This document shows positions 1,254 to 31,344 of a stretch of DNA of 35,109 nucleotides, piece by piece. Source of the DNA: Asterionella formosa (taxonomy: Eukaryota); NCBI GenBank assembly GCA_002256025.1, contig NKIB01000125.1, positions 1-35,109 on the forward strand, given 5' to 3'. The stretch's first letter is position 1; each line of letters opens with the position of its first letter. The position numbers were made by a program, and so were the translations under genes. Under the pieces are notes generated by a model, which worked only from the letters and a program-made list of their open reading frames with translations, was not told where the DNA came from and searched no databases.

Positions 1254-1408
1254 TAAGCAATGGCCTTATACTTGGCAAAAAAAGTGTAGCGTATACCGGT
1301 AATGATGGTGTACCGGTATCTATATTTATTCTTGTCCAGATATATTATTATGCACATCTTTTTCATTTTTATGATGCTGGTCTATACTTCTTTACGAGTT
1401 TAAATAAA

Positions 1409-1978
1409 GAGCATCTCCACCGCTTCAACCAAATACCAAGCCAATTGAAGTTGCGGGTCATTACACGTCACAATGTGTTGTGTTGGTCGAAAAAACAAAA
1501 ATATTTTAGCCACTGCATCGACCAAGACCAAACATGCTTTGGTCTTATTTGAGGATGCTGACCCCCTTATCGACCAAATATCAGGTATTTGGTCAATTAG
1601 ACTTCGACTGTAGCCAATTAAAAGAAGCATTTCTATTGGTTTAGATTGTGACTTCTGCCGGCAACCTAACATTTATTGTTTAATGAATACTTTGTATGCA
1701 TTCGTGGTGGCAAGGGAAATCTCTTCAGTTTCCTGCTGGCCGCCGCCCCCTTAGTAAAATCAGTCAAATTCAGTTACGGTACCGGTATTGTACATTGAGG
1801 GGGCTAGGACACTGAATTATACGGTATTTGCTTTAGGATTTGGGTCCATGCAGTGGGGAAAAATATGAAAAATTCGACTACCGGTATTGATGAAGAAATC
1901 CTCAACCAAGTGACGTGTTTTGATACTTTCAACTGCAATTGGCTTTGGTATACTATGGTCGATGCGGTGGAAATGCTC
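1409..1978 (-). mobile_element. PIF/Harbinger-type MITE (570 bp), internally deleted copy of the element at 25971-27674
   Basis: TIRs GAGCATCTCCACCGC (1409) and GCGGTGGAAATGCTC (ending 1978), flanked by AAA and TAA (near-match 3-bp TSD). 1409-1690 matches the reverse complement of about 27400-27674, and 1838-1978 matches the reverse complement of about 25971-26101. Repeated (T/C)GACCAAA subterminal motifs are present. Confidence 0.8.
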
Positions 1979-2333
1979 TAAACTTTCTACCGGTAGGTAA
2001 GCATACTTTTATGTATTTACCATCTACCGATAGCAATGTTATACGGTACAGCACCTGGTACCTGGTACCAGGTACCAGGTACCGTGTACATCATGTGCCC
2101 AGTGAAATACATACCGGTAAACTGTTTTATTACCGGTACCAGGTACTTCGCAGTCGAAAAACTTGTGAAATTATTGGAACAAACTATTACACCAGCACAG
2201 CGTCATCGAAAGAATAGAAGAAAACCGTCGTGCTCTCCTTCCCTCACAAAACAAGCGTCACATCTGGACGAATATAGAGTCCCATGTGAAGCAGAGCGAG
2301 GTTTAATGCTTTCTGTATTGCTTGTTGCAAACA

Positions 2334-8087: not shown

Positions 8088-9338
8088 NNNNNNNNNNNNN
8101 NNNNNNNNNNNNNNNNNNNNNNNNNNNNNNNNNNNNNNNNNNNNNNNNNNNNNNNNNNNNNNNNNNNNNNNNNNNNNNNNNNNNNNNNNNNNNNNNNNNN
8201 NNNNNNNNNNNNNNNNNNNNNNNNNNNNNNNNNNNNNNNNNNNNNNNNNNNNNNNNNNNNNNNNNNNNNNNNNNNNNNNNNNNNNNNNNNNNNNNNNNNN
8301 NNNNNNNNNNNNNNNNNNNNNNNNNNNNNNNNNNNNNNNNNNNNNNNNNNNNNNNNNNNNNNNNNNNNNNNNNNNNNNNNNNNNNNNNNNNNNNNNNNNN
8401 NNNNNNNNNNNNNNNNNNNNNNNNNNNNNNNNNNNNNNNNNNNNNNNNNNNNNNNNNNNNNNNNNNNNNNNNNNNNNNNNNNNNNNNNNNNNNNNNNNNN
8501 NNNNNNNNNNNNNNNNNNNNNNNNNNNNNNNNNNNNNNNNNNNNNNNNNNNNNNNNNNNNNNNNNNNNNNNNNNNNNNNNNNNNNNNNNNNNNNNNNNNN
8601 NNNNNNNNNNNNNNNNNNNNNNNNNNNNNNNNNNNNNNNNNNNNNNNNNNNNNNNNNNNNNNNNNNNNNNNNNNNNNNNNNNNNNNNNNNNNNNNNNNNN
8701 NNNNNNNNNNNNNNNNNNNNNNNNNNNNNNNNNNNNNNNNNNNNNNNNNNNNNNNNNNNNNNNNNNNNNNNNNNNNNNNNNNNNNNNNNNNNNNNNNNNN
8801 NNNNNNNNNNNNNNNNNNNNNNNNNNNNNNNNNNNNNNNNNNNNNNNNNNNNNNNNNNNNNNNNNNNNNNNNNNNNNNNNNNNNNNNNNNNNNNNNNNNN
8901 NNNNNNNNNNNNNNNNNNNNNNNNNATCTCCAAGAGTCTTTTCTGGCCAAAGTGAAGAACCGCACATCCTTTGTCCTCGATTTACAGTACCCTACAAGAT
9001 TCCCTATTGGTTAAAGTTAGGATCATTTGTAGTAGTGTTACTAACTATTTATATAAATGTACCGGTAACCCATATGTAGTCTTAACTTTTTCCAGCAATA
9101 AGAAGACTCATGCGAAAGAACTCACGAGCAAGAAGGGAAAGCCGGGAGCAAGCGTGATGTTGAGAATCACAAAATAGAATGTACCGGAACTCTACTGTAT
9201 CAGGGTTTCAAAAATTGCTGGTCGTATATTTTACAGGCAGACTCTGCTACACTTTGTATGACCATGGTACCTGGTACCCGGTACCACTGGTGTAAAATGC
9301 TAGTAAATGGCTGGGTGCATCCTGAAACATTAAAATAG

Positions 9339-9376
9339 GTACCAGGTACCACTTAGAAACTGCCTTGAACCTCTAT
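9339..9376 (+). repeat. Dispersed 38-bp copy of the terminus of the CCA-ended element (25743-25780, inverted)
   Basis: gtaccaggtaccacttagaaactgccttgaacctctat matches the reverse complement of 25743-25780 at 34 of 38 positions. Confidence 0.7.
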
Positions 9377-9895
9377 TTCCCTACGTTCGATCGATTAGTA
9401 CTACAACCAAACACTTGGGCATATATTTGCCATGCTCAACGCGACACTAGGTCATAGCTATATGAACCAAATCGTGTGCTCCTGCGCCGCTTGATGCGGT
9501 CACTGATAGCGCTTTTCATGACGGTTATGTTGATAAATCAAGCAGCGCAGGAGGCTGTAAAATTGTTAAGTAAATCAACAGAATAATACCGACATGGTCA
9601 ATGTGATTTTAATCTGGGTTTTTAGGCGCAAAATATTCTTTGGAGTACTAGTAGGGTCAAGCCTCTATATCATAGTTAGTACAGGGTCTACCTCGTGGCC
9701 CCAAAAATTGCACCCACCCATACATGCAGACTAGTACCATACTCCGTACAGACTATATGTATAGTAACACCACTACCAGTCTTTCAAATGATCCAAACTA
9801 TTACCAGTAGGGTGCCTGGTACGTTAAATCCAGAAGAAGGATATGCAGTTTTCACTTTGGCCAGAAAAGACTAATTTTGGAGCCTTTTTTACGCA

Positions 9896-9993: not shown

Positions 9994-11128
9994 AAATCAT
10001 AGTCATATGCTTTGTATTCTCGTTTTTGCAATTAGAAGAATTTCGCTATTTATTTCGCTGAATCGTGCTAGTATGAATAGAAGATGTCCTTTAGTACTAC
10101 ATACCGGCATACATGAAAAATATGTCGCTATCTGGTGACACGTTGTCAGGAAAATGACTGCAACTTGCAGCAGGTACAACAACCAGATGCGGTCTTTTTG
10201 TTAAAAAAACAATTTAATATGGGATAAAGACAGCTAAATCCTTAGTTCAGCAAATTTACCGCAACTTGCAGATATCGAAGAACTTTTTGCATATTTCTGT
10301 AAAATAATGTGTCAGTCGAATATCTCATAAGTACACATCAATAACAAATCATTCCACTGATGTCAATTATAACTTACATCGAATTTTTTTGATTAAAATT
10401 ANNNNNNNNNNNNNNNNNNNNNNNNNNNNNNNNNNNNNNNNNNNNNNNNNNNNNNNNNNNNNNNNNNNNNNNNNNNNNNNNNNNNNNNNNNNNNNNNNNN
10501 NNNNNNNNNNNNNNNNNNNNNNNNNNNNNNNNNNNNNNNNNNNNNNNNNNNNNNNNNNNNNNNNNNNNNNNNNNNNNNNNNNNNNNNNNNNNNNNNNNNN
10601 NNNNNNNNNNNNNNNNNNNNNNNNNNNNNNNNNNNNNNNNNNNNNNNNNNNNNNNNNNNNNNNNNNNNNNNNNNNNNNNNNNNNNNNNNNNNNNNNNNNN
10701 NNNNNNNNNNNNNNNNNNNNNNNNNNNNNNNNNNNNNNNNNNNNNNNNNNNNNNNNNNNNNNNNNNNNNNNNNNNNNNNNNNNNNNNNNNNNNNNNNNNN
10801 NNNNNNNNNNNNNNNNNNNNNNNNNNNNNNNNNNNNNNNNNCGATCTTTCATTCCAGGATCATGTGTACCAGTAGCTATGCATGAAAAGGAACATTTAAT
10901 CATGATTTCAAATTTATTAGCATGTATACATTTATAACAATTTGCAATAGATCACCTCTGTTTGTAATTGATCACCTCTTTCCACTTTTCAAACACCAAA
11001 TTCAGAGTCGGAGGCAAGTTTCCAATCCAAAAACCCATCACCCTAACCATAATGATGCACATCATGCATGAGAGAGTATACAAAGTATCAGCCTACCGGT
11101 AGCGTATTCTCACAGTCGACCAGCCACC

Positions 11129-12133
11129 ATGATTATGGACTCTACAACTGAATCGACAGGCCACTCCGGAGTCACGAAGCCGCAAGAGGCTTTCGATCCG
11201 CCCGCATCTAAATCTATGGAAGTAAATGACCTAATTGCTCCGTCATTGTCTCGATTAACCGAAGGGCTCCCTCGAAAAGAACTTGAAGCGATGCTTACGG
11301 AGGCCAAGGAATGCGAGGCTGCGTTGGAAAAGGAAATCAAACAGCTCGAAGAGGCGTTGCAAAACAAGGACACTAGCAATGAATCCGCAGTTAGTATCAT
11401 GCTCTCCTCGGAGATGACTCCACCAGACCGCTACTATTCTGTATCGGCTCTCATGGGGAGACTTCGAGATCCGTTGAGCACTCCATTGACTCCACTGAAC
11501 ACAGTTCGACAGCAACGAGCACAACAAGCACAACAAGAAAGAATTGCTCAAACAATGCTCCCGAAAAAGAAAAAGCCCTACTCTCCTGTTCCAGGCGACG
11601 ACACATTGCGGCAAATTGAGAAACAAAAACTTCTGCTGTCTCTGGACCTGTACCCGGAATACCGAACAGTGCACCCCGACTCGGCTCGATTGCTTGCTGC
11701 TTGGAAACGCATATCATCTCACAGATCCGCCATTGTATTTCGAAGGCCAGTCAACCCCAAGGAGGCGCCTGGGTATCAACACAGAATACTTTTCCCCATT
11801 GATTTGTCTCTAATCCGAAAAATGATTTCAGCGGGAATGATAACCTCGTTCGCCGACCTGCACCAACGAATTGGATTAATTTGTCACAATTGCGTCAAGT
11901 TCAATGGCTATTTAAGTGACTACGCTGTAGTTGCGAGGGATTTTGAATCTCACGTTGATGACATTTTTGTACAGACTGTTGCCTCTGTTCAGCCAATGAC
12001 CAACTCTCCTGCTGAGGTATGTCCTCCTGAAGTACCCAGCGTGGTCGCACAGGAGGATGTACCACCAACGAATGCAACTACTGAACTCAGGCAGCTACCT
12101 ACACCGGTTGATAACACTCCAGCATCCTCCTAA
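11129..12133 (+). CDS. Bromodomain-containing protein (334 aa) with an N-terminal coiled coil
   Basis: AWKRISSHRSAIVFRRPVNPKEAPGYQHRILFPIDLSLIRKMI...LICHNCVKFN is a bromodomain with the conserved acetyl-lysine-binding Asn. Single exon. Confidence 0.85.
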   Translation: MIMDSTTESTGHSGVTKPQEAFDPPASKSMEVNDLIAPSLSRLTEGLPRKELEAMLTEAKECEAALEKEIKQLEEALQNKDTSNESAVSIMLSSEMTPPDRYYSVSALMGRLRDPLSTPLTPLNTVRQQRAQQAQQERIAQTMLPKKKKPYSPVPGDDTLRQIEKQKLLLSLDLYPEYRTVHPDSARLLAAWKRISSHRSAIVFRRPVNPKEAPGYQHRILFPIDLSLIRKMISAGMITSFADLHQRIGLICHNCVKFNGYLSDYAVVARDFESHVDDIFVQTVASVQPMTNSPAEVCPPEVPSVVAQEDVPPTNATTELRQLPTPVDNTPASS

Positions 12134-12210
12134 AATATTAAAGTATAAGGCGTAGTTAATTTACGTATTTTTCCAGTGACTTGTTTGCCGTCAGACTGTA
12201 TTGGTACTGC

Positions 12211-15200
12211 TTAGCTAGCACCTGCAGCTCCTTCCGCACCCAAAAGCTCTCGTCGTTCATGGAAGTGAAGCGCTTCCAAATGAGCTTGCTCCAAATTGGA
12301 CTGGTCTTGTGACTGTAATGATGAGGTAAACCTCACTCGAAGATGTTCGTTGTTAGACAAAGTTGTTTGGAGTCGATGAAGTGTTCCACCTGCACTTTGT
12401 TGTAGGACTCGGTCAGTTCGGTAGTTGGCCAAGCACCACTCAAGCATTTGATAACAATTGGGCGTCCACAGAAGTGTCAAGTGGAACTCTTCTGTCAGTG
12501 AGAGGTTATGTAGAACCAAACAGGCACGGTTCAATATGGCCTCACTTGAGCAAAAGTTCTTCATGGCTTGGACGACAAGGTTGGTAATCTGCTCAACGTG
12601 TTCGTCTAAAACCTCCTTCTCGGTAGGATTGTTTACGTCACCGAGTTGCTCTTGAAGTGCAGAATTGACCTCGTCAGGGAGGCTGACCGAGGGAATGACT
12701 AAATTGATCAGCGCAAATAAAGCTCGGAACTGAACTTCCACATCGTAGGGGTGCTGAATCATTGCATTCGCAACAACTTCAATTCCTCCAAGCTTGACAA
12801 GTACGGCTTTCTGGGATGGAGCAAGTGCGATGTTGACCAACGACCAACAACTCATGGCTTGCAAAACTTCATCAGTTTGGAATCTTCGCATTGAGTCAAG
12901 CATTACAGCAATTCCGTTTTTGTCGTTTCTGGATCCATTATTGAAAATACCAGAGGAATTGACCATGGAACTATGAAATAACATTCCTTCCTTGCCTCCA
13001 AGGGGTCGAGCAAGAAGCACAATGGTGTGGAAGGCAGCAGTGTGTAGACTGACGCTGTCGGGGAAAAGAACCATGCCTCGCAAGACAATTTCTGTGAGAC
13101 CAGCAAGCGGGGCCGTGGTTCGCTGAGTTTCATCTTCGAGCAAAGATGGCAGAACCTTGAGGCACATTGTTTGGATTCCCTCTACATCAGCAAACGCGAC
13201 CATCCAGTTCACTATTGAATAGATGGCGCAAGACCAAGGCAAATTGACATTACCCGCCTTGCCACTTCTGGACGGGCCAAGGAGTCTGGCCGAAAGTTGG
13301 GAGAGACCAAAAGTCACCTTTGGAGGGATAACTTTATTCGACTTATTTCTGCCTCCAGGCTATGCAAAGATAGTGAAATAAGCACGTGAGCAAATGTTTG
13401 CGAATGTATGGGACATCAATGCACAGCTTACTTACCATACCAGAACTGTCAATAGAGCTTCCATCATCGTTTACTCCGATTGGGTCATCTATGGTGTCAC
13501 ATTTCTTCGCTACTTTGATTCGATTCCGCTTATTCTTGACAACGATGCCTCTTGCCCTATGTAGGAATCGCTTCAGGCTTTCGTTACTTCGAAGGGGGAG
13601 TGCGTTGAGATCAGCACCACCGTAATCGATAACAGAGGGAGCACGGCCATTGATTGCATCATCCTTAATTCTTGCTAGATACTTCATGCAACGAACAAAG
13701 GATGTGTAGAGAAGGCGGTAACGGCCAAGTAAATGTTTGACATCAGGCTCAAAGTTCATTGGGTAGGACGTCATGTCTTCATCACCACTATCTTGTTCGT
13801 CAGAGTCGAATTTCGCATTAAATGGTGGCGTCAAACAAAGAACGCGCCAAAGATCCTGGGGTCTGGTGAAGTTTTGGTGCCATTCTTTCGAGAGTGGCAT
13901 TGTGAGCAAGTCATGGATGTTTGGTGGTTCAAGGTATGACATGCAATATGCCATTAGGTCGCTACTCAAAATAAAAAGTGGTGACTTCCCATCAATCATA
14001 CACGAGGCGCTTGTCGCGCCACTGGAAGGGATCGAAGGTGCCAACTTTGCTGCAGGCTTTTTGTCCATATCATCTTCATAATTCTTCTTCCTTGCCAACT
14101 GGTAGTTGTCCTGCAGGGAGGATTGGTTTTGCTCCTGGACAGTCCGTCTTGTCGCTGCCATCATTTTTGATTCCAACACATCGACTTTGACTTCATTACA
14201 TGGCTTTTTCGATCGACGTCGTCTTGACTTGGGTGCAAGCCAACTATTCAAAGTGATTCGGGCAAGCTCTGCTGGATCGATAGAGCTCATGTTCATTTTC
14301 TTGGCAGCGCTGCGAATACTTCCGGAGGAATATCCATAGTCGGATCCAAAATCCAAGAAATCAGAAGAGCATGAAATAGCTGAATTATTATCAAGGTCAC
14401 TGGCCTTGCGCTTATTGCTGCACTGGTCCCCTTCTCGTCCTCGCGATGTGGACTCGTCCTCCGATGACAAGGATGACGTAGTATCCTGTTCACCCACATA
14501 ACCACCTTCAGTCCCACTGCCAGTGGACATTATACTGCTAGTAGAAGAAACACTGGTGGAAAGTCGTGGCTTCTTTGCAACCGGTGTATCTTTCATGTAG
14601 CTCTGTTGAAGGAGAGGAATAGGATCATCAGGAGCGAGCAAAATTAAGCCCGTATTTCTGTGAGATGACGTGTTTGGCTTTTCCTCACTTCTTGAAGAGC
14701 TCGTGTTTGCTGATTTCCTTGCCAGTTTCTTGTTCCTTTTATCGCTGTCACCTTCACTTGAATAGTAGAGGAAGTTCGCATTATTGGGGGAGCTACTGCA
14801 TGGGGGTGGTAACAAAGCAACCACAGCGGACGCAGTCTTTCCATTTGTCCCAATTGATGTTTCAATACGGTCGTCTACATGAACTGTCAAGCCATATTCA
14901 TCACTGATTACAGCCGAAGTGTTGATGCTTGCCCGCAAAGGGCTTTGGACATCGGATTGCCGAGATGTGCGTGCGCTAAGGTCGTGGTAGTTTTGAGATT
15001 CGGTCAACGCTTCATGAGGGAATTCTTGGCTTGTCCTTGTGTGTGTAGACGAGTATCGATCTTCTCCCGAAGAAACCGCAGATGTCGAAGCCGTCACTAA
15101 AGCAGCTCCTGAATCCGAGCTAACCGCGTTGCTTCCCGTGCTCCATGATACCCGCTCGTCGCGGCCCAGAGAATCTTGTAGACTGTCTGAATCGGAGCTA

Positions 15201-15640
15201 TTCTTATGGTGGTAAGTTTTCTTTGTTTCCCGTGTATTCACCACTAATCCTGCCTGTCTACGAGAACGCTTCATACGTTCCGTCGATCTATCGGTGATAC
15301 AGTCCCCACATCTTTGATGGCGAGAAGAAACGTCGATGGAGAAGGAAAGTGTAACCTCAGACTGCTTTTGTTCGCTTGCTCCCTCCATTGCACACTCATG
15401 CTGTGGTCGCTGAGCACATTCCATTGTATCGACCGAGGAATCGTTGGCGAACTCCACGACTGTATTGTTGACTTTTGGGCATGGAAACCCACGTTGTTCC
15501 AAAATTTCTGAATCTAACTTGAACGGTGATGGTGGTTGCCCCGTTGGTTGATGCTGTGAATCTTGTTGCTGTCCTCTAAGTTTCCTGGAGAGATGGTTGC
15601 TGCCCAGGTTGACCGACATGGCCTCGTCTGAAGTATTCAT
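12211..15640 (-). CDS. F-box-like plus armadillo-repeat protein with a long Ser-rich N-terminus, about 1117 aa, 2 exons
   Basis: Exons 15640-13436 and 13359-12211 are joined in phase 0 across a GTAAG...TAG intron (13435-13360), reading SSGM|PGGRNKS. F-box-like LFILSSDLMAYCMSYL...LSKEW...DLWRVLC. ARM-like repeats GIAVMLDSMRRF..VLQAMSCWSLVNIA, GGIEVVANAM..VQFRALFALINL and ILNRACLVLHNLS. Confidence 0.78.
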
Positions 15641-16853
15641 TGTTGATGTTTCGTAGTTGCAATGATTGTTTTAATTATATGATAGAATTGATGGGACGAC
15701 CGTACCGGGTAATCACCTTGTGAATAAAAGCAGATGGGCAGCTGTACATATGATGTCTGTCGAGTTCCACACTTTAAAATGCAGTTTTTGTCCGCAAGAA
15801 GGGAACCGCAGATGTCTGTTCTTCTCCGGGATCCGGGTTCGCTTAAAAACGAAAGAAAATCTGCTTTCGAAATCTGTACCTCTCAGTTCAATTGTTTCGC
15901 GAAATAAGCAAACAAACTCTTCGCTTTTTAAAATTTATAGCAAATACAAAGATGAGGATGGTAGCAATGAACAATGGATGCTCTCGCAACCACCTTTACT
16001 GACGAAAATAAACAATTATCTGGGATCGACAAGAAAATCAAGAGGAATGTTTTTCTTGGCCGGCTTCTCAAGACACGTCACGGTTCGCAGCTTTTAGTCG
16101 CTTGCCATGGAGTCACTGGTCGATGACGACAGACACGTGAATAGGGAACAAACAGATGGCCAATCGTGAGAAGCCTCCCCATGCTGAGTAATGAGGTCAT
16201 GCAACCTGGATTCAATCCTGATAATTAAAACCAAGCGATGTCAACCTCCTTCTTTACATGCATACATAAATGGGAAATTTTCGCATTCTCAATCCACATG
16301 ACACTACCAGGTACCATGCTGATGGTCGTTTTGGTTTAAAAACATCATTCCCACGAAAAATCACGGATCGATGAGCAGGTCCATTATATCGGTACTGGAG
16401 CATGTCTGAAAAGAATTTCATCTTTTCGCTCCTCCTGTTGGTGCATATAATACTCAGCGTACATTTACATTCACGCTGGGCAATGCAACAGCTTGGATTC
16501 ACTCGTCTCGTACGCACGCAATTCGTTGTCATCGTGGTGTTAAAATGACAGCAGCCAGAATCTGTGAAGGCTCCCAGTTTACTATGTATAAATACACAAA
16601 GCAAGTGGAAAGAGACTACCCTGGTACCTGGGACCATCTCACCAGGGTGTACCACGTAACATGTACCGGTACCGGTAAGCAAACGATCCATCGTTAGGAA
16701 GGAAAGAAATCTGTTATTATGGATATAGAGCTGCCTCAAGCGCAGCCAGTTTACTAGGAATGTGGTCTCTAGATTGTCTATGCCGGTACCTGGTACCTAG
16801 GTACAAAGCGAATTTTGAAGGCTACGTGTGCATGTCGCCATGAGTGCTACCAG

Positions 16854-16996
16854 ATCCAGGCGCTGTCGGGTGAGCGATGCAGACCTAATACGGTAATGGT
16901 ACCAGGTACCTACCTGGTGCCTGGTACCGGTACTCGGAGTGAGAGTACTACCTGGTACCAGGTAACCCATCCAGGAGCTGTCGGGTGAGCCATGCA
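16854..16996. repeat. Pair of 28-bp direct repeats around a GGTACC-rich spacer
   Basis: atccaggcgctgtcgggtgagcgatgca (16854-16881) and atccaggagctgtcgggtgagccatgca (16969-16996) are 26/28 identical. Confidence 0.75.
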
Positions 16997-17532
16997 AGAA
17001 TCAATCCAAAAAAATAAGTCATGCGGTTTTCAGCTTCTTTGTTGTGTCCTGATACATACATTTATCATGACACGTTTGTGTCAGAACGTGCCCTTCCTAT
17101 TACCTGGTACTCCGTACCCTGGTACCTTGTACCTGTAGACCATGAAGTTTCATCATCCATCTGCTCAATTATGCATCCCAATTCTTGTATCATTATTCTC
17201 TCCTGCCGTCACAGGCGCAGCTTCACTCAATCAACAATTAGGAATCCCAACTACTAGGATCTGTCGGTGCAACACACTATTGTATATGTAATCAATGTTT
17301 CCTTCAGCCACCGTAGGCAACACACTTTTCATGGCGGTGGTGCCCACTACACAGTTTATAGGAGGCGACTTTGAAGTCCCTAGTTATACTAAATTACAGA
17401 ACATGCCAATCAATTCTCGTGAATTAGCATCAGTCCCATCCTCATCATATACCCGGTATTTGATATCCATGCAGCCATGCCTAATAATTGTTAAACGTTG
17501 ACTTGGTACTACTGTGAGAATTTCGACAGCAT

Positions 17533-18900: not shown

Positions 18901-20619
18901 CAAATTTATAAGTGCTGCTACATACATACACATGTGCGTTGAAAGGATAGAGCAACAGGAGAGAGTCAGAGAGAATCAGGTGTGCAATGTGGAGGAGGAA
19001 TGTGACAAAGTCAAAAGGATGGGAGGTTTTGTGTAAATGCTTTTCTAGATTTGTTTCATTCTTACAACCCTGATTTCCGCATAATTCAAGTACCCCACAA
19101 AATAGTAACGCCTCACGCCAATGCAACAACTGTGGAGGTGTGTAGCGGCAGCGGTAACAAACAATATGTTGCTGTTTGCCATTGTGCCACAGGACACCAA
19201 CCAGATAATCTACAAAAGCAGCAATTCCTGCTCTAGTTATATGTAAAATGTATCATTGTGCTGCCCTCCGTCTAAAGTACCTGGTACTTCTTATTCACAC
19301 CCTGAATTTTAGGTCAAACCAACACCTAAAAAATGGTCAGTACAAAATGTACACATGAGAATGACTTCTACCTCAGGTGGATTACACCCATCCATACCTA
19401 ATACAGAAAGTACTGATAATACATTGCAGGGGGAAAAACTATTGTCAATATGTATGATGCAGACAATCAATTATAAACTCACCATCACTTCATTTCAACC
19501 TCAACCATATGATAGAATGTAGATGAAATGATTCATGAATGAGCTATAAGTAGTGTCAGTACTACTTGTTCTGTTGAAAATTGTTGACAACATTCAACAA
19601 TGTTGGCCTGATTCTTTGGTTGGCTGCTTGAACCAAATTAATCCCTTGTTCATTTTAATAACTACAAGTAACAATTCATTAGCATCAAAATTTCAAAATC
19701 AGAGTTTTGATGTTAACGTTGTAGTCTTTAGTAGTAGATTTATCCATACTGCTAGGTTGTTTGAATAATGTGAGATTAGCTTCATGCAATCCTTGCATCG
19801 CTCATGAAGCCTCAATGATAGGCTTATGGAGCGAGTTCAATCATCTCTTAATCTATCAAAGAATCATGTTATTCGTGTGAATTTTGAACTACCTGACCTG
19901 ATTTATCAGCTTGCAACAAATGCTGGACCCTCAGTGACAAATCTCATGACATGGTGAGGATAGAGAATCCAGAAATCTTGATTCAATTCAACAATCAAAA
20001 ATGCGCCAGAGTTTAAAACTTGAAGTCGGTAAATAATAGACAAACTCATTTGAAGGGTTTGGGATTTTCTAGCGATAAGAACAGGGTGGTTATTCAATGA
20101 TAGCTGGCAATCAATTGGGCTTGAATTGGCAACGAAAACGAAGAAAAATGACTCTATACTAGGCATGGACGGTAAACAGAATAAATCAGAAGACTACATA
20201 ATCAAACGAATATTTTCATGGATGTTGTGATATCTAGTCATCAACATTCTATTTTAAAAACACATCCACACATGCAATGAGTTGTTATAATGGTGGCCGC
20301 ATTATCAACATGCAACTGTCACAACATACTACAACCAAAATTTCACTTACAAAATTTGGCTGCATATTAGCTAGTATTTCAGAGATTGACGAGACAGCAT
20401 GGACTTCGGTTGATTGCTGTGATAAGCAATTGTCAATTCATACAAATGAGCACAACCATAGCTAGCAACGACAAAAGTGAGCTATGGCAAACTGTAGACT
20501 GATCATATGGTTTCGCAATATTTAGTGACAAGGATAACGAAAAGTTCATGTTGACAAGATTCTACAAAAAAAACACACTGGTGCATACTGACATGTATGT
20601 ATGTGCATCCATCAGGAAC

Positions 20620-20808
20620 CAGGTAGCCTGGTACCGGTAACAGGTAGCAGGTAGCAGGTAGCAGGTACTCNNNNNNNNNNNNNNNNNNNNNNNNNNNNNN
20701 NNNNNNNNNNNNNNNNNNNNNNNNNNNNNNNNNNNNNNNNNNNNNNNNNNNNNNNNNNNNNNNNNNNNNNNNNNNNNNNNACAGGTAGCAGGTAGCAGGT
20801 AGCAGGTA
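20620..20808. repeat. (TAGCAGG)n heptamer array, interrupted by the Tc1/mariner-type element and resuming at 23938-23958
   Basis: ggtagcaggtagcaggtagcaggta on the left and tagcaggtagcaggtaccggt on the right of the insertion. The block appears twice around the 20671-20780 gap. Confidence 0.7.
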
Positions 20809-21599
20809 CTCCCTCTGTCCAATAACAGTTGCATCGATAATTCAAATTTATCTGGGGCTATTTTAACTCCTACGATTTTCTCCGGCTCAATTGACCTATT
20901 GTGCGGCTTGCTCTAAGCTACAGAATCATGTACATATTATACATAGAAAGATTAAAATTGGCAACTACATTTCAAAAAATGGTTTTTGGGCTTTTTGATT
21001 TTCACTTATGGCTATCTCGAGCAAAATGCAGATGCAAGAGGACCCAATTTTCTTCGAACCATCTATTCTCAACATACTTACAAAGTACGATATATCAGTA
21101 GAACAACGTCAACTTGCGTGAAATTATGGAATTCACAACCCCGAAAGTGGTGATGACGGGAAGGAAAAAACGACGGTATGCTCGTTTTGAGGATTGTAAC
21201 CGTTAAATATCCGGCAGTATGGTCCATGTAGGTGCAACAACCATAGAAACTATACCGAACAACAATTTTTCTATTCACGTTATAATTATGATAGTGGCTT
21301 GTTGTATTTGGTTTCCCGCAAATATTTGACTGGCCGGCCGATGTGAAACAGCAGTTGGCGATATGTACATGTATGCAATAAATATGCATATGTTATATTG
21401 GCTGGTTTTGATTAATTTATTTATATGCTAATAAATTAATTTCTGAAACCGATTGTATGCGTCTGCAAATAAAAACCATCATATTCCCATGATGCATCAT
21501 AGGGTTGTGATCATCTGATCATAATTTTTCGTTATATCATCTAATAATTTTGATAAATGCTCTTGTAATTTAAATAGTAACCCTTTTGACTATGTATAT

Positions 21600-22238
21600 T
21601 TAATTATTATATGTATTGTTTCCATTAGATTCCTGTATATGAATTTCTTGGTAGGATAATGTACCAGCTAAAGTAATGTAATTTGGCTCGTCGTCTCCAT
21701 CCGTCATCACTCCGATTTTTGCAACAACAACGAAACACTAGCGATGACAATTGGAATGATTGTTTGCGATAACGTCTTCAATTTTTGGACGAATGTCCTT
21801 CATCATTATCATTGTGGTTTGCCGCAGGAAAATTTTGATATCCATATCGTCATTTTCTTGTTGGAACTGTCCGTTGCCTCAAACCTGCTTAGCGTGTGCG
21901 TACACACAATGTCGACTTGTTTTCATTGGTATGTTGTTCTTGTAATCACTGTTGAACTTGTCCGCATCTTTGTTACCATCAATAGAGCGACAAGTGGATC
22001 TCTTCATTGCTGTTTGCTCCTGGAAAAGTCGGCGTCCGTGTCAACATCAATAGAGGGACAGGTGTCCTTCATCTTTGTGGTTTGCCACTGGAAAAATTGG
22101 TACCCATATCGTCATTCGCTCGTTGGAACTGTCCCTTGCCTCAAACCTGCTTAGTGTGTGTGTATGTACACTGTCAACTTGTGTACATTACAGCAGTGAC
22201 TTAGCTACTAAAGTGCGTGTTGTAATATCATACTCCAT
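21600..22238 (-). pseudogene. Decayed ORF of unknown function with an internal duplicated motif
   Basis: ATG at 22238. A degenerate direct repeat (about 21860-21920 versus about 22123-22182) translates QVDSVHTHTLSRFEARDSSNERMTIWVP and QVDIVCTHTLSRFEATDSSNKKMTIWIS. It is interrupted by stops and frameshifts. Confidence 0.35.
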
Positions 22239-22650
22239 AGTACAATACAGAATACAGTTCCCAATCAACATTGAATGATTGATAAGATGATAATGTGATG
22301 TTACAATAGGGTTACATCGATACATACAATCCCAATATATGATACGTAATATTGAATAATGTTTATCACATAGCTATGATACATTGATCATAGAACAATG
22401 ATGATTTCTTAAAATGTTTATGATTTATTTTTAATCAAAATATGATCATGTTAAAATAATACAATGATAATAATATACCATAAAATATGAACACAAGTGT
22501 TATCAATGCATCATAGAAGAAAGATTGATTAATCATAAAGTATATTATCATCTTAACAATACAAGACGTGCCGATTTGAGAGTTTCTCAGAATTTTATAA
22601 AGTACGACACTTGGTATATTTATATATTTACAAATTTTATAACTATATAC

Positions 22651-23497
22651 ATGGCAAATATATTTGAAATCGTTCTGTCATGTTAACAAACAATGCCTGC
22701 TTCGTGAAAAGAAATATCGTAGTAAAGCATACAACAAGGAAAGTTTACGCAGCAATACATAACGAAAAACATTGTGGCTTCGACACATTGCGCCTTCGAA
22801 GGATGGAGTATGTTTAAGGTAATGAAGCCATCAATGTGGTACGTGGATGGCAATCATTGTGAGGACAACAACAAATAGTAAACTAAACGAACGTTTCCTT
22901 TCTTCTGAGTTGATTCAATAGCTCATTTCGCTTGCTGGGGAGCACCAATGTAAAACAAAACAAAATTGGTAAGTGCTCTTGTCGTTGGACCTATTCACTA
23001 CTGTTGGAATATAACTGACAGACACGTTTACCTTCTTTCAAAGTTAAGCTAACGAAAATGAATTAGTAAGTTTTATTCGACAACATTGGATACCTGAAAC
23101 TTACTTTTTCAAGAATTTACTGACAATTTACTATCACAGACATATGCATCAGTTGTTTTCATTTGTGGTAAGTGAAGCAAGCAAGAGGATACGATGGAAT
23201 GGCGTGATGTTGTGTCAGTGTAACATGACTAGCTAACAAGTCATTCCTTCTCATTGTTACTGTAACTGCATAGGACAATAAAACCAATGAAACAACGGAA
23301 TAGTCGGCGAGTTCAGAGTGACACTAACAGCAGGGAAAGGTACACAACAATATTAGGCACTGCCTGACACAAGATTCAGAATAGAGGAAGAAAAGGGTGA
23401 GACAGGAATATACATTGAGACGAGTGGAGAGGAGAGAAACATTCCTTGGGTAGCTCTCGAAACAGAAACATCATTGTTAAATTTGTTAATTAAATAA
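22651..23497 (+). pseudogene. Decayed 4-exon gene of unknown function
   Basis: Canonical GT-AG introns at 22819-22921, 22969-23043 and 23168-23273 (two with GTAAGT donors; CTGAC/CTAAC branch-like motifs). Splicing keeps one frame from ATG 22651 into exon 4, with scattered stops and one late frameshift. Confidence 0.5.
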
Positions 23498-24256
23498 AGA
23501 TCCATTCCAATCCGTTTTGAACAATCCTTGTGATTATTATTAAGATCATGTTTAAGATAGATATACGATGAAACAATTTACATGATAGCATAGAGTTTAG
23601 CTGATTTTAGGATGCGTTGTAGTAATAATAAACATTTGGCAATCACGAGAAGTGAAAATAAAATGAGAATGTTTATGATATTGATAAGAAATGTTTTTGA
23701 TCAGTTGATATACATTGTGTGATGATAATGTTCTTATTATCATTATACTTCAAGTTCGGTAAAATATTAATAAATCATCATAGTTACAGGATACCTTGAT
23801 CATATTTTGATCCAAAAATTGTCATATATATGAAAGTCAAGTGCCACTTAGCGTACGATACCATTGATCCTATATGCATGACACTTTTTATTTGCAGACG
23901 TGTTCACGTCGATGCAACTGTTATTGGACAGAGGGAGTAGCAGGTAGCAGGTACCGGTCCGTATTATTCCATAATATCATAAAAGTCATAGCTGCCTGCT
24001 GTCCAGTATAATTTTCTATATATCTACCGGTACATTCATCTCCATGTCCAGAATTTATATACTGGAAAGTCCGGTAATCAGCGCACATAGCGTGCAGGTT
24101 GCTCGTTTTCTGTTCATCAATTCACATACGAGAAAAGGCATGGGTACACCCCCAAAAAATTTCGAATCCCTAAATTTTGCGCCACTCTGTTATTCTTTAA
24201 ATAGTTGTTTACGTAGACGTTAAGCCGTTAGTCGTTTTATTGTCAAAATGAACTTG

Positions 24257-24825
24257 AAGTCAGCAGTCAGTAAGTCGAAGTCAGCAGTCAGCAATTTCAT
24301 GTCAGAACTCAGCAAAAAAAGTCAGCAGTCCCCGATTTTTCAAATTTTCAGAGAATCAAGTCACCAGTCAGTAGTTGGCAAGTTGAAGTCAGCATTTTAT
24401 GATAGTACATAGTGGTAGCAATATGAAGAAGTAGATAATTATGATTTTTTTCAGGCATCAATGTCTATTTCACAGTTTTTTATCATGCATGGAGTAACAG
24501 CTACCTCTAAGTTTCTCCCAATAGTATGAACATAGAAGGCATCGCTTTTATCATCCCAACAATAAAAAGATGTGTTTCCATTGTTATTCAAATATGGAAA
24601 GTAAACACGATTCGTACACCGGTACCAGTAGTTGGTCTCTTCCTGTATACAAAGTAGGTTGCTTGACATCAGCATGTTGAAGTTATCAGTCAGCGACTGC
24701 ATGTCAGAAGCAGTCAGCAGCCAAATGAAGCCGGCATTCAGCGAATACTTCAAATTTTCAGCAAATCAAGTCAGCAGTTAGCAACAAGAAGTCCGCAGTC
24801 AGCAAGTTGAAGTTGGTAGTCAGCG
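24257..24825 (+). repeat. Two clusters of AGTCAGC(AG) direct repeats
   Basis: Dense aagtcagcagtcag-type units at about 24257-24395 and 24668-24825. Both clusters also contain tcaaattttcag...aatcaagtca. Confidence 0.7.
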
Positions 24826-25044
24826 ATTCTGCTGTGAAAGGTGGCAGCGCTTTTCCGTTTGAAACTTTATAATGGTTACAGGTAATATAAATAAATGGAA
24901 ATATTTTGAGATTTTTTCATCATTTCGGAATCGGTCAGTCGGTCAGACTTCCAATGAAGTAGGTTGAAACCGCTGCTTCGAATTTTTAGTATAAAATAGT
25001 GCGCAATTTGATGATTACTGGAGCTTCCTGTTAGAACCATGATA

Positions 25045-25770
25045 CCAGACAAAAACTGTAAGCCACCGCTATGACGACTTTTGAACTGTAAGCCACCGCT
25101 AAACGGAGCAAACGCACGGTTTGAACTTAGTTTGCAAGATACGTTAATTATTGTCAAGAAGGAGTTGTTCAGATTGATACAGCGAATAAATACTTCCGTA
25201 CTTGTATTTTTGCTTTGTGTAAGTTGTTATATACTTATTACGGCCCAAAGGTTGCTGTCAACGCGAAATTGCGAAAGATGGATATTTTCACGTTTACTCT
25301 ATTGAGCTGGCATCGCCATTTCTACATGCATGTGTACGGGCATATGAACAAGAATGATAATGTTCTTCCGATAGAATTAATTTAGTATAATTAATTAGGG
25401 GTACGAGGTCATCACGCTTTCGAATACCTACAGTATGCGTCAGAAGCATTTGGTGATGACGCAAGCGCTAAAAGCATATTGTATCGCGCCTAACAGGTGA
25501 AGTAATGCGAAAAGAATTTCTTTAGTATCAAGGGAGTAAAAATAATCACGGTTTTGGGGGAAAATATACTCATGTATGAATAGAAAAATATGCACTGTAG
25601 GCCACCGCTGTGCAACAAGAATCTTAATGACTTTGAAAAAATTAGATCTTCATGGGATCGTTTCAGATTTGTAAACTATCAGAAATTCGTGACAAAACGT
25701 GTTATTCTACGTATAATGGTTCAAAGCGGTAGAATAATTTCGATATAGGTTCAAAGCAGTTTTTAGGTGG
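25045..25770. mobile_element. Putative TA-flanked non-autonomous DNA transposon with CCA...TGG ends (726 bp)
   Basis: TA|CCAGACAAAAACTG at 25043-25058 and CAGTTTTTAGGTGG|TA at 25757-25772 (11/14 IR match). Duplicated subterminal motifs aactgtaagccaccgcta (25054, 25084) and ggttcaaagc (twice near the right end). The right end recurs at 9349. Confidence 0.5.
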
Positions 25771-25970
25771 TACCTGGTACCTGGAACGGAGTGCCAGATG
25801 AAGACGCAGTATGTTTATACCAGGCAGAAAGTGGTACCTGGTACAAGGTACCGGTAGCTACAATGCATCACATAACGACCTCAATCTAAGTACCGGTAAG
25901 GTATGAACCATCAGAATCCGTCATCCGTTTTACACTGTACAAAAGTTTTGAATGCAGCGAGTCATTAATA

Positions 25971-27674
25971 GAATATCTCCACTGCATCGACCAAATACCA
26001 AAGCCAATTGCAGTTGAAAATATCAACACACGTCACTTGGTCGAGAATTTTTTTATCAATAGTTGAATTTTTCATGCTTTTCCCACTGCATTGACCAAAT
26101 CCTAGAATAGTCAAATCTCGCGCCGAAACTTTTTGCGAATAGAAATAGCACTAGAATGTTATTACATGTGTATCGTTATATTAATAAACCCGATTACTAC
26201 CAATAAGAAAATGATGGGACGCACTGCGTGGTTTGTGGTACTAGCATACCAGCCAGGGTACTCATCCATATGTATCTGCCTGATGAAATGAGCAACAATA
26301 GCGACTCATCAGATGACGACCACTCCTACACTTCCGTACATAACGGTTATACATGTACAGGAAGAAAACGAGAAAAGGCAACCAAAGGAGGAGGCGGAGG
26401 ATAAAAGGAAATTGCTTGGCTAGTCTATACCTGTAGTTTTTTGAATATTAGTAGCATCACATTTCCTGCAAATTCCTTATTCTTACGCAGCTAGTACTAC
26501 GCCTATTTAAACTGCCCATCAAAACCTGATATTACTATACATTTGTATATTGGTATTCTAGAACAGAGAAACCCTTCCGTTTTTCCAATTAGCTAGAGTG
26601 ATAGCTTTCTAATCAATCATACTAGCATCGACATGTAATCTATATTATTTTTCTTCATTTGGAATCATCTATTACATCAAATCATCAGTGGTGGATGACA
26701 GCCAGGTGGGGCAGTGGAGTACTCGAAGCACTTGAATTATTGAGATGCAATTGGATCACACCTAATCCCTCCTTCACTTTGTTCCTTAAATGACATTGAC
26801 TTTATTGCCGTGAAGCCCTTCGTTAAATGGTCCAACTCTCTTGGATACTTTTTTTAATCCTTCAGCTGATTAATTGACCATCGAAACTGTAAACTGTTAC
26901 ACAATATACCCATGGCATCATAACTTCACATAATGCTGAGCAAACTTGAGCGTAATGTTGATCTGCAGGCAAGGGAAGGAGATATTAATACTAGCCAGGG
27001 ACATGCAGCAGTCTGCCAATGATGACACATCACGGTACACGAGGAACAATGCTGCCTTGACAAAACTCGCACATCGCTATCGATTGTCACTCTTGACAGC
27101 GCCAAAATAATCCAACTTTGATCTTGTCTGAAATCGACAATGAATCATCCTCGTTAGCTGCTGCTCCTACTGCTCCTGCTGCTGCTCCTACTCATGTAGC
27201 ATCCTGCATTGACGCCAATGGATGACGATATCATCTCATTGGGACCGTCAAAGACTTGAAGGACAACATTCAGCAAGATGTCATATTTTATGGATGAGAT
27301 AGTGTTATAGATGGCTGCCGGTATTATTCAAAGGTATTTGTACTTAGTTTCTTATTTTTCTTTATCAAGAGAGTAAAGTAAATGTGTATTGTAAGCCTTT
27401 GTGGATCAATTAAACAGTCGACGTTATGTTGCCGGCGCAAGCCATAATCTAGACCAATAGAAACACTTCCTTTGTTTGGCTACAGTCGGTGTCTAATCGA
27501 CCAAATACCTGATATTTGGTCAATAAGGGGGTCATTCTCAATCAAGACCAAAGCATATTTGGTCTTGGTCAATGCGGTGGCTGAAATATTTCTGCTTTTT
27601 CGACCAAGACAACACATCATGACATGTAATGACTCCCAACTGCTTGGTATTTGGTCGATGCAGTGGAGATTCTC
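25971..27674 (+). mobile_element. PIF/Harbinger-type non-autonomous DNA transposon (1704 bp) with decayed internal coding sequence
   Basis: TIRs GAATATCTCCACTGCATCGACCAAATACCAA and TTGGTATTTGGTCGATGCAGTGGAGATTCTC, flanked by ATA and TTA. GAGCATCTCCA-type ends with TAA/TTA TSD are characteristic of PIF/Harbinger. A second copy lies at 1409-1978. The interior has stop-riddled coding-like stretches (about 26270-26420 and 26910-27340). Confidence 0.8.
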
Positions 27675-27812: not shown

Positions 27813-28255
27813 ATGTCCCTCAGGGGCAGTTAATTTAACCTAAAATTCCCCACCTTCTGAGACATGAATTTTTTTTGCCCCCAATTCAGCGTTCCAAATT
27901 TGGTACTGGTACTACTTCGGCTCCTGTGTACATTTTGTGTATTTGAATTCGCTTTTTGGTTTTGCCACCAGCCGACGATGTGTGTCATCATCATGATGGA
28001 GGATGCATTCTACATCGTAAGATATTTTTGAACTGGTAGGACAAAGTGAGTATTGCTCGACTGACATGAAGTACTTTGGAGCTTTGTTCAGTCTATGCTT
28101 GTTTAGTTGTTTGTCTACACGAGAACACTAGGTAGTTGCTAACTATACTCCACAGCAAAGATTTGTTGGATCGTTCTGTTGAAGCCAAACAACAAGGAGA
28201 GAAAACGGGGAACTAGTGGTGATTTATTGGAATATATACGCGGTAAAAAATAGTC

Positions 28256-28630: not shown

Positions 28631-28761
28631 TGCCAAGGATAGCCTGCTCAGTTAGTTTGAGATTAATCCTTGGATTTGGTCAAATGAACGTGAAATGGTT
28701 GCAAAGATTTCCTACAACAATTAAAATTTTGTATAATTAAAAAAAATAATGTAGCTAATTT

Positions 28762-29694
28762 TTAAATGTTCTTTACATCGAGACCAAAGGCGCGACGGTT
28801 TTCGACTTCGCCGACAAATTGGCCGAGAAAGACGCCTTTAGTTCTTTGTCCAACACGTCCATTTTTCTTCAACACAATTGCGATACCTTCTGCTTCCACA
28901 TCGACACCTTGCCTCCTCGCTTCGTCCGTTTCATCATCCACCACGGACTTCCAGTTGGGTCCAATAGGAAGGGCAACACATTCAGGAAGTGGCACATTCT
29001 CGTCGTACACTGGGGCAATGCCTTGAGGTAACACTACTGGCACAATGATAAGGTCGTTGGAGGTCAAGGCATCTTGCAGTCGAGTTGCCTCTTTTAGGAT
29101 TTCAGTAACCTTGTCCTTTCCCGCTGCAACAATCACAACTCTCTTTTCAATTCCTCGACCTCGTCTCAGCGACGAAAGATTTGTATTGAACATTGCTGAT
29201 GTCGCACTATCCGATTCCTCTGCCAGATTTTTGGAGGCCCGGATCATCAGTCTTGCCAAATCACCTCCCTTTTTCGCACGCTTCAGTCTAGATTCCTGTG
29301 CGTCCACATCTCGTTTAGCAAGCAGTCCAATCGCCACGATTCCTACCAAGTCGACAGCTGCATTCTTAATGCTCTCATCCATAAGATCGGCATTTATCCC
29401 AGATAAAGCTGCAGCAATACGAGTAGTGGAAACCAGGAGGGACATGAACGCACCCGAACCCAAACTGGCATAGAAGAAGAATCGAACCTTTCGAAAGGGC
29501 GATTCAGCTTCCTCTCTCAGTCTGATATCTTGACTGTACTCGTCCTCTGTCATGTGACGAGGAATCAAGGAGAACTTTGTCGTCATCGTTCTTAACACGA
29601 CTCTTCTTGTGGAAAAGGCGCGTACATGGTTACAAGAAAAGAGAGTGGCGATGACAAGTGCGAGAAAAAATATACTCAGCTTCACAAGCGCCAT
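28762..29694 (-). CDS. LPA1: Plastid-targeted LPA1-like / DUF3493 photosystem II assembly factor (310 aa)
   Basis: Signal peptide followed by VRA-FS (ASAFAP-type) and a transit-like segment. RLREEAESPFRKVRFFFY and two hydrophobic helices match DUF3493/LPA1. Later motifs RVVIVAAG, DLIIVPV and LKKNGRVGQRTKG. Confidence 0.78.
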   Translation of the reverse strand: MALVKLSIFFLALVIATLFSCNHVRAFSTRRVVLRTMTTKFSLIPRHMTEDEYSQDIRLREEAESPFRKVRFFFYASLGSGAFMSLLVSTTRIAAALSGINADLMDESIKNAAVDLVGIVAIGLLAKRDVDAQESRLKRAKKGGDLARLMIRASKNLAEESDSATSAMFNTNLSSLRRGRGIEKRVVIVAAGKDKVTEILKEATRLQDALTSNDLIIVPVVLPQGIAPVYDENVPLPECVALPIGPNWKSVVDDETDEARRQGVDVEAEGIAIVLKKNGRVGQRTKGVFLGQFVGEVENRRAFGLDVKNI

Positions 29695-31344
29695 GATGCG
29701 AATGAACTTCCTGGAAGAAATGAGATGACGGGCCCCCTAATTTTTGCTAGTAAATAATTCGAAGTTTTTTCAAGGAGTTAGATGAACGGCCTCCTTGCTT
29801 TGCTAGTAATTAATAGTCAGTGGCGGAGAACTGATTTTGGAGGGCATGGGCAACAACAGCTCACAGATTCAATGTCGTGGTACCAGGTAGCATCAGTTCT
29901 GACACGAAAAATGGAAAAACGGTGCATCATGTCATCACTACCAGGTACCAGGTAACCGGGGACTCCGGAGTATCAGTACATGATACTTTATACAAGTATA
30001 ACAGAGCAATCGTCGCATGTGCTTCCGGTTGTATAACGCGTATGATCTGGCGGTATATAAAGCGTATTGTAAAGTACTGTGAGCTTTTATCTGAATTCCA
30101 CATGCAAACATCATTTATTTACATGTGATTTCATGGTCAGCGACGTAATACCGGTACTCGAGCTCACGGTACTGACGTCAACATGTACGCAATTGACGTC
30201 ACCAACCTGCGTACAGGGTACGTGCGTACGATTCATACCATTTCTTGTTTATACAGTTGCTGTAAGAAACATGGTGCCGGTATACCTGTATGATCTGAAA
30301 ATCATTGCGCCGTCCTCCTGTCCTGTGCGTTGACAGTCTATTGATTCGTAGCAGAGGTCGGTGAAAGTATACTGCAGGGCAGTATACTGGAGTTTTGGAT
30401 ACTGATGCTGCTCCAGACGCAGTATCAGTATACCAGTATACTGTCATTCTATATTCCAAATACCATACTGTTCCAAAATTTCCCAATATACTGGTCTACC
30501 GGTAGCATGCCAGTATACTGCTATGTAGGAATCTACAGAAAATCCGGCATGTCATGTAGCGTTGGAGAGCGAAATTCCATTCAATGCTTGGGCTATAAAG
30601 CAACACCAAAATAGAAAAATTGGTATACAATAGAAATTATATTTGTCTTCATCTCCTCCTTGGCACTTCTGACAAACTGTTTGAGTTGGCTGTCATGAAG
30701 GTAATGAAAGAAGGTGAAGAGCTGAATGCTGAAGAAACAATAAAGTTGCAAAACTTAATGCATCATCACGCACATCCCAGACTTTCTACGACTAATCAGA
30801 GTTGATTGTTCAACCAAAAAGGGAGTACAAAATCAACCGTCAATGCAACCGGGTTGATTTTTTCTTTGTTGTACAATACTGTATTTTCTCGTGATCAAGT
30901 ACGGAAAAATACCGTGGAGGTAATTACCATCCGCAGTAGAACGATACTTGAGGCCTACAGAAAAATACAACTTGGGTTGATTTTTTCAAGTAAAACTGCA
31001 GTATAATATCACCGACCCATGGTACGTAGGTATTTACGACTCACGTAGGAGATGTTGCAGATGTGTCTACCGGCAGACTACCGGTACCTGTCAATCGGAG
31101 TACCCTGGTACCAGGCACTGCTGGTATCATGGCAGCACGAAGTATCACTGATACACCAATGCCTCCTGAAAAAAGTCAGCTTGCCGCTTTGTCTTCACCA
31201 ACTCCCTTCTGATCATCGTCAGCATCAGCACGCAAGGTGAACAATGATGGTGTCTTTTCCCTCCCTCCTTGAATTGGGGTTCTCATGACAAAACAGAAAG
31301 ACTCTTTTCAACCTAAATCAAAGCAGCAACCTTTTAATCGAACC

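Follow-up and report, generated by a model that had tools for sequence, protein, structure and literature searches.

Sleeping Beauty, a transposon of the Tc1/mariner type, leaves the footprint TAC(A/T)GTA when it excises. The Tc1 footprint is given as TACATGTA (PMC3520976), ZB footprints as 0-3 bp (PMC7913693) and the empty sites of the Arabidopsis pogo-type miniature inverted-repeat transposable element (MITE) Emigrant/Lemi1 as carrying extra bases that match its terminal inverted repeats (TIRs; PMC1636448). Oomycete promoters contain motif 1 (TACATGTA) and motif 9 (GTACCGGTA), according to PMC3520976, PMC10031896 and PMC11134190, the first of which dismisses a Tc1-footprint origin for TACATGTA on the grounds of abundance and conservation. 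Here we analyzed a 35,109-nt stretch of the diatom Asterionella formosa (GenBank assembly GCA_002256025.1, contig NKIB01000125.1, positions 1 to 35,109; hereafter the window, contig C125 of an assembly of 68.4 Mb in 15,436 contigs). Its non-coding DNA is rich in short palindromic units, TA-CCGG-TA and TA-CC(A/T)GG-TA, which an earlier note made by eye had read as stacked footprints of transposon excision. Empty homologous sites, confinement to TA and matching ends of resident elements support this origin, and the units are probably excision footprints of TA-duplicating transposons of the IS630-Tc1-mariner type. A literature search covering few subscription journals and no supplements returned no paper on such units in a diatom or on arrays of scars, which does not show that they are unpublished.

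Palindromic units and their insertion at bare TA

The window contains 37 units (TACCGGTA 19, TACCAGGTA 10 and TACCTGGTA 8), in agreement with the more than 20 recurrences noticed by eye. Counted on both strands, there are 38 occurrences of TACCGGTA compared to 0.65 expected under an order-2 Markov model and 18 of TACC(A/T)GGTA compared to 0.34, with window units exceeding the model more than 50-fold. As also claimed from inspection, intact exons are free of them: none of the 37 falls within 14,225 nt of exon, delimited by hand from the list of open reading frames (ORFs).

The same pattern was seen in a 600-kb genome sample, made up of 60 segments of 10 kb; these came from 13 long contigs other than the window, each chosen because it had a MITE hit. 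Coding sequence was represented by stop-free frames of at least 450 nt (219,752 nt), a proxy that overhangs into non-coding DNA. In the remaining 379,824 nt of non-coding sequence we counted 169 TACCGGTA (3.9 expected) and 159 TACC(A/T)GGTA (4.2 expected), compared to 19 and 12 in the coding proxy; overall, units were enriched approximately 40-fold. Other TA-flanked cores in the non-coding sample were CCAG/CTGG (128 versus 18.7 expected), CCAGGG/CCCTGG (21 versus 0.7), CCGGG/CCCGG (19 versus 1.4) and CCG/CGG (62 versus 30). A k-mer count of this kind, with exons kept apart from non-coding DNA, had been suggested as a check, and the strong enrichment depends on context: CCGG is enriched 43-fold and CCAGG 38-fold only between TA and TA, whereas for none of the other 15 repeated dinucleotides does the enrichment exceed 3.8-fold, with counts of at most 9. 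A total of 396 units in 635 kb extrapolates to ~40,000 per genome, on the basis of long contigs selected through their MITE hits.

Units also appear as insertions among homologous repeat copies. We aligned 149 records (872 kb) all against all and, requiring at least three other copies to polarize an event, identified 270 insertions. Exact TA-CC..GG-TA types made up 9 of the 40 non-tandem insertions of at least 5 bp, including the unit at window position 1879 and a double insertion of two different units at one TA, TA-CTGG-TA-CCGG-TA. Empty homologous sites were examined for 312 CCGG, 300 CC(A/T)GG and 2,000 control TA-x-TA sites, with hits of arrays to themselves removed (which reduced the empty CC(A/T)GG sites from 24 to 6). 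An empty copy was found for 25 of 57 CCGG sites with a homologue but only 11 of 694 control sites; the figures were 6 of 16 for CC(A/T)GG, one of which (L122:8341) is probably an array artefact, and 8 of 26 for CCG/CGG. Among the 25 empty CCGG sites, 21 had TA at the junction and 2 had GG or CC beside it. As in an excision footprint, the core is confined to TA with the TA duplicated, and homologous empty sites hold one TA.

Insertion at bare TA, as the earlier note proposed, is thus borne out by the excess of empty sites over controls. The expectation that such units would dominate insertions was right about the position, exactly at TA, but not about the proportion, since they account for only 9 of the 270 polarized insertions. 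All cores together occupy ~0.85% of non-coding bases, and the description of transposition as a major author of non-coding DNA is overstated for these units, which make up only about 1% of it.

At some homologous sites CCGG in one copy corresponds to CCAG in another (L104/L063 and L065/L073), and TA-flanked CCAG/CTGG is therefore mostly attributable to CpG decay of CCGG; an interpretation as a separate 4-nt footprint was dropped. CG methylation is known in diatom repeats.

Small insertions overall have a spectrum of their own. The 3-4 bp class dominates (115 of 3 bp and 55 of 4 bp, with 36 of 1 bp; n = 270). In all 52 insertions of the form XY+1+XY and in 19 of 21 of the form XYZ+1+XYZ, the middle base was C or G, and the two bases were GC in 17 of 21 of the form XY+2+XY; any dinucleotide can be the site. 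A further feature is that 46 insertions were perfect 3-bp duplications. Insertions shaped like target duplications are the commonest small insertions in the examined repeat copies. The 3-4 bp class looks like footprints of another element with a variable target-site duplication (TSD) of 2-3 bp, and no source was found for it among the elements examined.

Candidate source elements and the growth of arrays

Two kinds of resident element have ends that match the cores. DDE_1 had 93 matches in the genome, and those elements that could be bounded belong mostly to two CCGTA-ended families of 2.2-2.5 kb. These CCG elements have a TA TSD at empty sites, short TIRs and a single frame. One family has an open frame of 421 amino acids with DD35D spacing, and the frame of L169 contains D321 and D357 (DD35D) and matches DDE_1 with an E value of 1e-21. 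Because copies are up to 99.7-100% identical, the CCGTA-ended family was recently active. Its young members (L152-L161 and L169; 99-100% identical) contain a second frame of 145 amino acids on the opposite strand, which has no Pfam family. CCGTA ends are also found in Tc2 of C. elegans. CAG-ended pogo elements are present as well (L150).

The second kind is an element of the type predicted, with TA-CCA...TGG-TA ends and a DD(E/D) transposase. Exact CCA ends comprise 221 CCAG and 420 CCAC. MITEs with these ends are ~670-850 bp long and have TA on both sides in 17 of 23 full elements; head-to-head ends share a single TA in four of four cases, and empty sites hold one TA. Two lie in the window (9349 and 25045-25770). 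Two larger CCAG elements of 3.4-3.5 kb, L184 (C780:1240-4783) and L185 (C6474:3810-7194), have units on both sides and carry a transposase broken by stops and frameshifts.

A 324-amino acid fragment of this transposase identified 32 unnamed homologues (P0001-P0032; 577-1,029 amino acids) without Pfam domains, whose alignment has invariant aspartates D398, D548 and D586, giving DD37D. The fold was predicted for the homologue P0003 and not for the broken genomic copies (mean predicted local distance difference test score 74). This model matched the catalytic domain of Mos1 (Z = 11.8, root-mean-square deviation 3.4, 191 aligned), SETMAR (Z = 11.0) and Sleeping Beauty (Z = 10.3; range 10.2-11.8), compared to Z scores of at most 8.0 for integrases, and Foldseek placed Mos1 first, with an E value of only 0.02. 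As modeled, the CCA transposase has a Mos1-like catalytic fold with a D-D-D triad, combined with a TA TSD. A DDE_1 Pfam match was found in none of 11 full-length homologues and none of 6 fragments, and sequence and profile searches gave no match to Pfam, PDB or the CCG pogo proteins. Neighbors in a protein language model were DDE_1 clusters at 0.93-0.94, a lead only. Since the transposase is Pfam-negative, Pfam-based annotation would miss these elements.

Other assignments were considered. Mover, a pogo family with DD36D, was ruled out for the CCA elements by their spacing of 37. A Harbinger element duplicating CWG (W, A or T) was rejected for CCA families A and B, as CWG lies outside the GTAC ends in 1 of 23 pairs (permutation mean 0.9). 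In a separate family with GTGAGCGAT ends (L010, L125, L127, L140, L141 and L148), CAG or CTG precedes the ends in several copies; it apparently sits inside CC(A/T)GG units, and a CWG duplication may fit there. Three TTAA-flanked elements with GGTTCCTGC ends (L045, L097 and L111) are presumably Kolobok-like, judging by their ends. A DDE_3 profile search of the genome gave no match; neither did Transposase_1 or Transposase_21, which also matched nothing in control genomes, so that absence is not implied.

Flanking bases connect each unit to one kind of element. Flank profiles were read towards the TA for 378 CC(A/T)GG, 85 CCA, 414 CCGG and 38 CCG flanks. G occupies position -1 in 0.79 of CC(A/T)GG units and 0.86 of CCA ends, and GG precedes the TA in 0.57 and 0.64, respectively, compared to a background of 0.06; when flanks with an intact neighboring unit are left out, GG is still found at 0.41 and 0.52. 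For CCGG units the GG value is 0.13 (0.07 without a neighbor), and for CCG ends it is 0.05. The units thus probably have two sources, CCGG coming from CCG-ended pogo elements and CC(A/T)GG from the CCA family. The original idea that one CCA element produced all three units survives for CC(A/T)GG but probably not for CCGG, whose flanks match those of the CCG-ended pogo.

The CCA family also appears to return to its own scars. Of the 85 CCA ends, 27 abut an intact unit, whereas none of the 38 CCG ends does. The CCA element L052 occupies the right TA of a CCAGGG unit, and L179 shows this unit without the element. In the case of L052 the unit is thus the older of the two, so that scars become targets, and the proposed repeated use of one TA is supported by both observations. 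About half of the CC(A/T)GG units are in arrays, compared to 14% of CCGG units (177 of 207, or 86%, are single), because the CCA family prefers GG-TA-CC, and a scar supplies GG-TA at one end and TA-CC at the other; the units are therefore often concatenated, as first described, in the case of CC(A/T)GG but not CCGG.

Genome-wide, the 5,576 adjacent CC(A/T)GG dimers comprise 2,502 mixed (45%) and 3,074 same-unit pairs (55%). Their orientations are close to independent, and the surplus attributable to slippage is small. Arrays built by repeated insertion and excision are in keeping with re-use of the same TA, but slippage adds a little, as seen in the same-unit surplus and in TAGCAGG runs. A strong array polarity was not upheld: CCTGG before CCAGG fell from 11:1 in 635 kb to 1,500:1,002 genome-wide, which amounts to no more than a mild bias. 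In the 635-kb sample, TACCAGGGTA occurred 24 times and TACCTGGGTA once (CCAGGG versus CCTGGG core). TACTCCGTA/TACGGAGTA, enriched 5.8-fold in the same sample, are possibly scars of a family with CTCCCTC ends.

Proposed mechanism and competing readings

The elements insert at TA and duplicate it. On excision, 2-3 terminal bases would remain on each flank, and end joining would convert them to TA-core-TA. For CCG-ended pogo, the product would be CCGG, probably through CG annealing of two CCG overhangs, with CCG/CGG, CCGGG/CCCGG and CCGCGG as rarer products, and enrichment is indeed seen for each of CCG/CGG, CCGGG and CCGCGG. CCA-ended elements would leave CC(A/T)GG. As the correlation of flanks and one direct case suggest, the CCA family would target GG-TA-CC and re-enter beside old scars, each cycle adding a unit. 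DNA transposons may favor open upstream regions, where scars would accumulate, and CCGG would decay by CpG transition to CCAG/CTGG, while slippage would extend some arrays.

Several observations weigh against this reading. Among the matches listed, no locus is occupied by the element in one copy while another copy bears a new scar; the pair L005 and L038 was not counted as such, as the neighboring element differs in orientation. Some rows of the empty-site comparison are a single event seen in sister copies. A contig from another strain (X2, 8,434 nt) differs by 7 substitutions and 0 gaps, and contigs of four public runs covering 10842-20670 show no unit indel in the single-copy part among the rows listed, these strains being nearly identical. 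The products are also not all as expected. CCA overhangs have no microhomology, CCATGG is not enriched (4 on both strands versus 2.1 expected) and neither is TA-CCA-TA alone (0.9-fold); CCAGGG is enriched 26-fold, unlike CCTGGG and CCACGG, and few cores contain CCAC, even though CCAC ends outnumber CCAG. TACAGTA and TACATGTA are not enriched (1.1-fold) despite the CAG-ended pogo. Rice excisions were rarely clean (8 of 94 perfect; PMC4423477), whereas the scars here are stereotyped. Finally, units are 11-fold denser upstream of genes than downstream, a distribution expected of a selected motif.

The last point leads to the alternative that survives best, and which we consider unlikely: the units are protein-binding promoter words maintained by selection, and transposons follow the bound protein or open chromatin. 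The 500 bp preceding 51 long ORFs contain 71 units per 1,752 TA, compared to 7 per 1,810 TA downstream of 52 long ORFs (p = 3e-15), the ~11-fold difference that such an explanation would predict. The ratio of intact CCGG to decayed CCAG/CTGG is also higher upstream (42:11) than in repeats (26:28), which speaks for selection, and lower CG methylation upstream would also fit. Moreover, GTACCGGTA has been described as a motif of oomycete promoters (PMC10031896, PMC3520976) and TACATGTA is bound by PsMyb37 (PMC11134190). Unrelated elements share the preference: around CCA, CCG and Harbinger-like ends alike, units are 2-4 times as frequent as on average, but a shared insertion bias fits this. Selection leaves unexplained how units originate: within transposon copies, a bare TA acquires a whole unit in a single step, the cores equal the ends of resident elements, and CC(A/T)GG and CCGG each share the flank profile of a different family. 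A scar origin and later use as a binding site are compatible.

A much less probable account is that the arrays are microsatellite-like, having started from chance seeds and expanded through slippage or template switching. Same-unit dimers (55%), homogeneous runs (TAGCAGG in the window and a long CCAGG run in L069) and a step from L006 to L007 readable as a 6-bp duplication are all of the kind it predicts. Yet 45% of dimers are mixed and 86% of CCGG units stand alone, and only 2 of the 25 empty CCGG sites offered GG or CC beside the TA; units do not arise only by copying a neighbor, nor are arrays homogeneous. Because empty sites exist, slippage is refuted as the origin of single units and stands as a secondary process. 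Least probable of all is an unrelated repair or polymerase activity that adds a fixed short sequence at TA breaks, for although the odd small-insertion spectrum (170 of 270 of 3-4 bp, with C or G in the middle of every XY+1+XY case) and the lack of a source found for that class would suit it, CCGG and CC(A/T)GG are limited to TA, and two families identified here have ends and target profiles that match them.

Units along the window and comparison with known systems

The window encodes an SNF2 helicase and CRAL/TRIO, bromodomain, ARM repeat, LPA1-like, FAD oxidoreductase and ENTH proteins. Clusters closest to the LPA1-like protein come mostly from Bacillariophyta, a lead only, and the sequencing runs containing this DNA are mostly labeled as freshwater, lake or algae metagenomes, in keeping with a freshwater diatom. 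Positions read by eye hold overall, with three corrections: 24027 is 24025, the exact unit given as 20620 is TACCGGTA at 20632, and 1775-1787 reads TA-CGG-TA-CCGG-TA. Two lone TA-CCGG-TA units (1294 and 1311; 1294..1318) precede a repeat segment with GAGCATC... ends (1409..1978), which we take to be Harbinger-like from the TAA/TTA flanks of related copies and its end motifs. Its units at 1775-1787 and 1879-1886 are missing in homologous copies, and the second, a TA-CCGG-TA inserted at bare TA (1879..1886), corresponds to a gap in 8 of 13 covering copies. A cluster upstream of the SNF2/ERCC6-like gene (1988..2145) includes the array TA-CCTGG-TA-CCAGG-TA-CCAGG-TA (2059-2081) and TA-CCGG-TA-CCAGG-TA (2131-2145). 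Further units at 9060, 9268-9283 and 9340-9348 (9060..9348) are followed on the plus strand by a truncated CCA-terminal MITE end of family A (9349..9420, inner limit approximate), which abuts TA-CCAGG-TA. In the bromodomain gene, the first ATG is preceded at a distance of ~30 nt by a TA-CCGG-TA (11094..11101).

A dense intergenic cluster at 16305..17124 contains CCAGG, CCTGG, CCGG, CCCTGG and CGG units and shows no indel relative to another strain. A TA-CCTGG-TA (19278..19286) marks the edge of a high-copy repeat (19286-20620), whose depth in public contigs is 30-100 times that of the single-copy part. At 20632..20808, a TA-CCGG-TA (20632) accompanies a homogeneous (TAGCAGG)n run, which is a mutated unit expanded by slippage; an N gap separates two halves with 100% identity, which may represent a single copy that was assembled twice. 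Inside this TAGCAGG array lies a 3.1-kb non-coding element with CTCCCTC ends and TA on both sides (20809..23937). Table 1 of PMC4423477 gives CTCCCTC as the TIR consensus of plant Mariner elements. The CCA-terminal MITE at 25045..25770 (TA-CCAGAC...GGTGG-TA) abuts a TA-CCTGG-TA at its right end, and of the units that follow at 25771, 25835, 25849 and 25891 (25771..25898), the last is absent from a homologous copy. The LPA1-like and FAD-oxidoreductase genes are divergent, and the spacer between them (29881..31110) holds units at 29881, 29939-29954, 30149, 30431, 30497, 31079 and 31101.

Other features of the window include a 1.7-kb Harbinger-like element (25971-27674) with a homologous empty site in L037; a perfect 22-nt inverted repeat (8935-8956 and 9851-9872, 894 nt apart) beside an N gap, possibly another element; AGTCAGC 7-mer tracts in a repeat at 24070-25028 that is also present in other contigs; and broken frames on the minus strand (17816-18660) resembling, by eye, an aldo-keto-reductase-type gene.

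Most probably, the locus displays a known mechanism at unusual scale, distinguished by the attribution to two families, the use of scars as targets and a Pfam-negative transposase family. Excision footprints are usually seen as rare and messy, whereas in this genome no other word is as strongly over-represented. Scars can be assigned to transposon families by their flanks and form a cumulative record of past excisions, and for an element that prefers its own scar as a target, transposition can build tandem arrays in a simple way. More tentatively, and we think with a rather lower chance of being right than wrong, a DD37D family that prefers its own scar could act as a self-priming ratchet, having written, together with CCG pogo, more than one palindromic unit per promoter in arrays used by other elements and perhaps by host proteins, with oomycete TACATGTA and TACCGGTA of the same origin. 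If so, excision scars would be a source of stramenopile cis-regulatory words.

The fold and three aspartates of the CCA transposase are common to Mos1, SETMAR and Sleeping Beauty; the CCA proteins differ in length (~870-1,030 amino acids for the longest) and in DD37D, a spacing that agrees with DD37D/maT, compared by spacing alone. The spacings of pogo families have been described (PMC7386202), and Passer has DD35D, short TIRs and footprints of 0-4 bp (PMC9976928). The CCG elements resemble Passer in DD35D, TA TSD, short TIRs and a single frame of ~420 amino acids, but Passer is known from animals and Fot/Fot-like elements are also DD35D, so the likeness is one of shared features only. Footprints of Tc1/mariner transposons are alike in the duplicated TA around 2-3 terminal bases and in the presence of cognate elements, but are known from single events or assays, whereas here there are tens of thousands, arrayed and upstream of genes. 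For Emigrant/Lemi1, the accessible text describes two loci only and no re-targeting of scars, compared to a genome-wide word here. Oomycete palindromes were dismissed as footprints for their abundance, and the empty-site comparison could be applied there. They are identical or nearly so to the diatom units and likewise lie upstream of genes; in oomycetes they are read as transcription-factor sites, whereas here such units are seen to have been inserted at bare TA.

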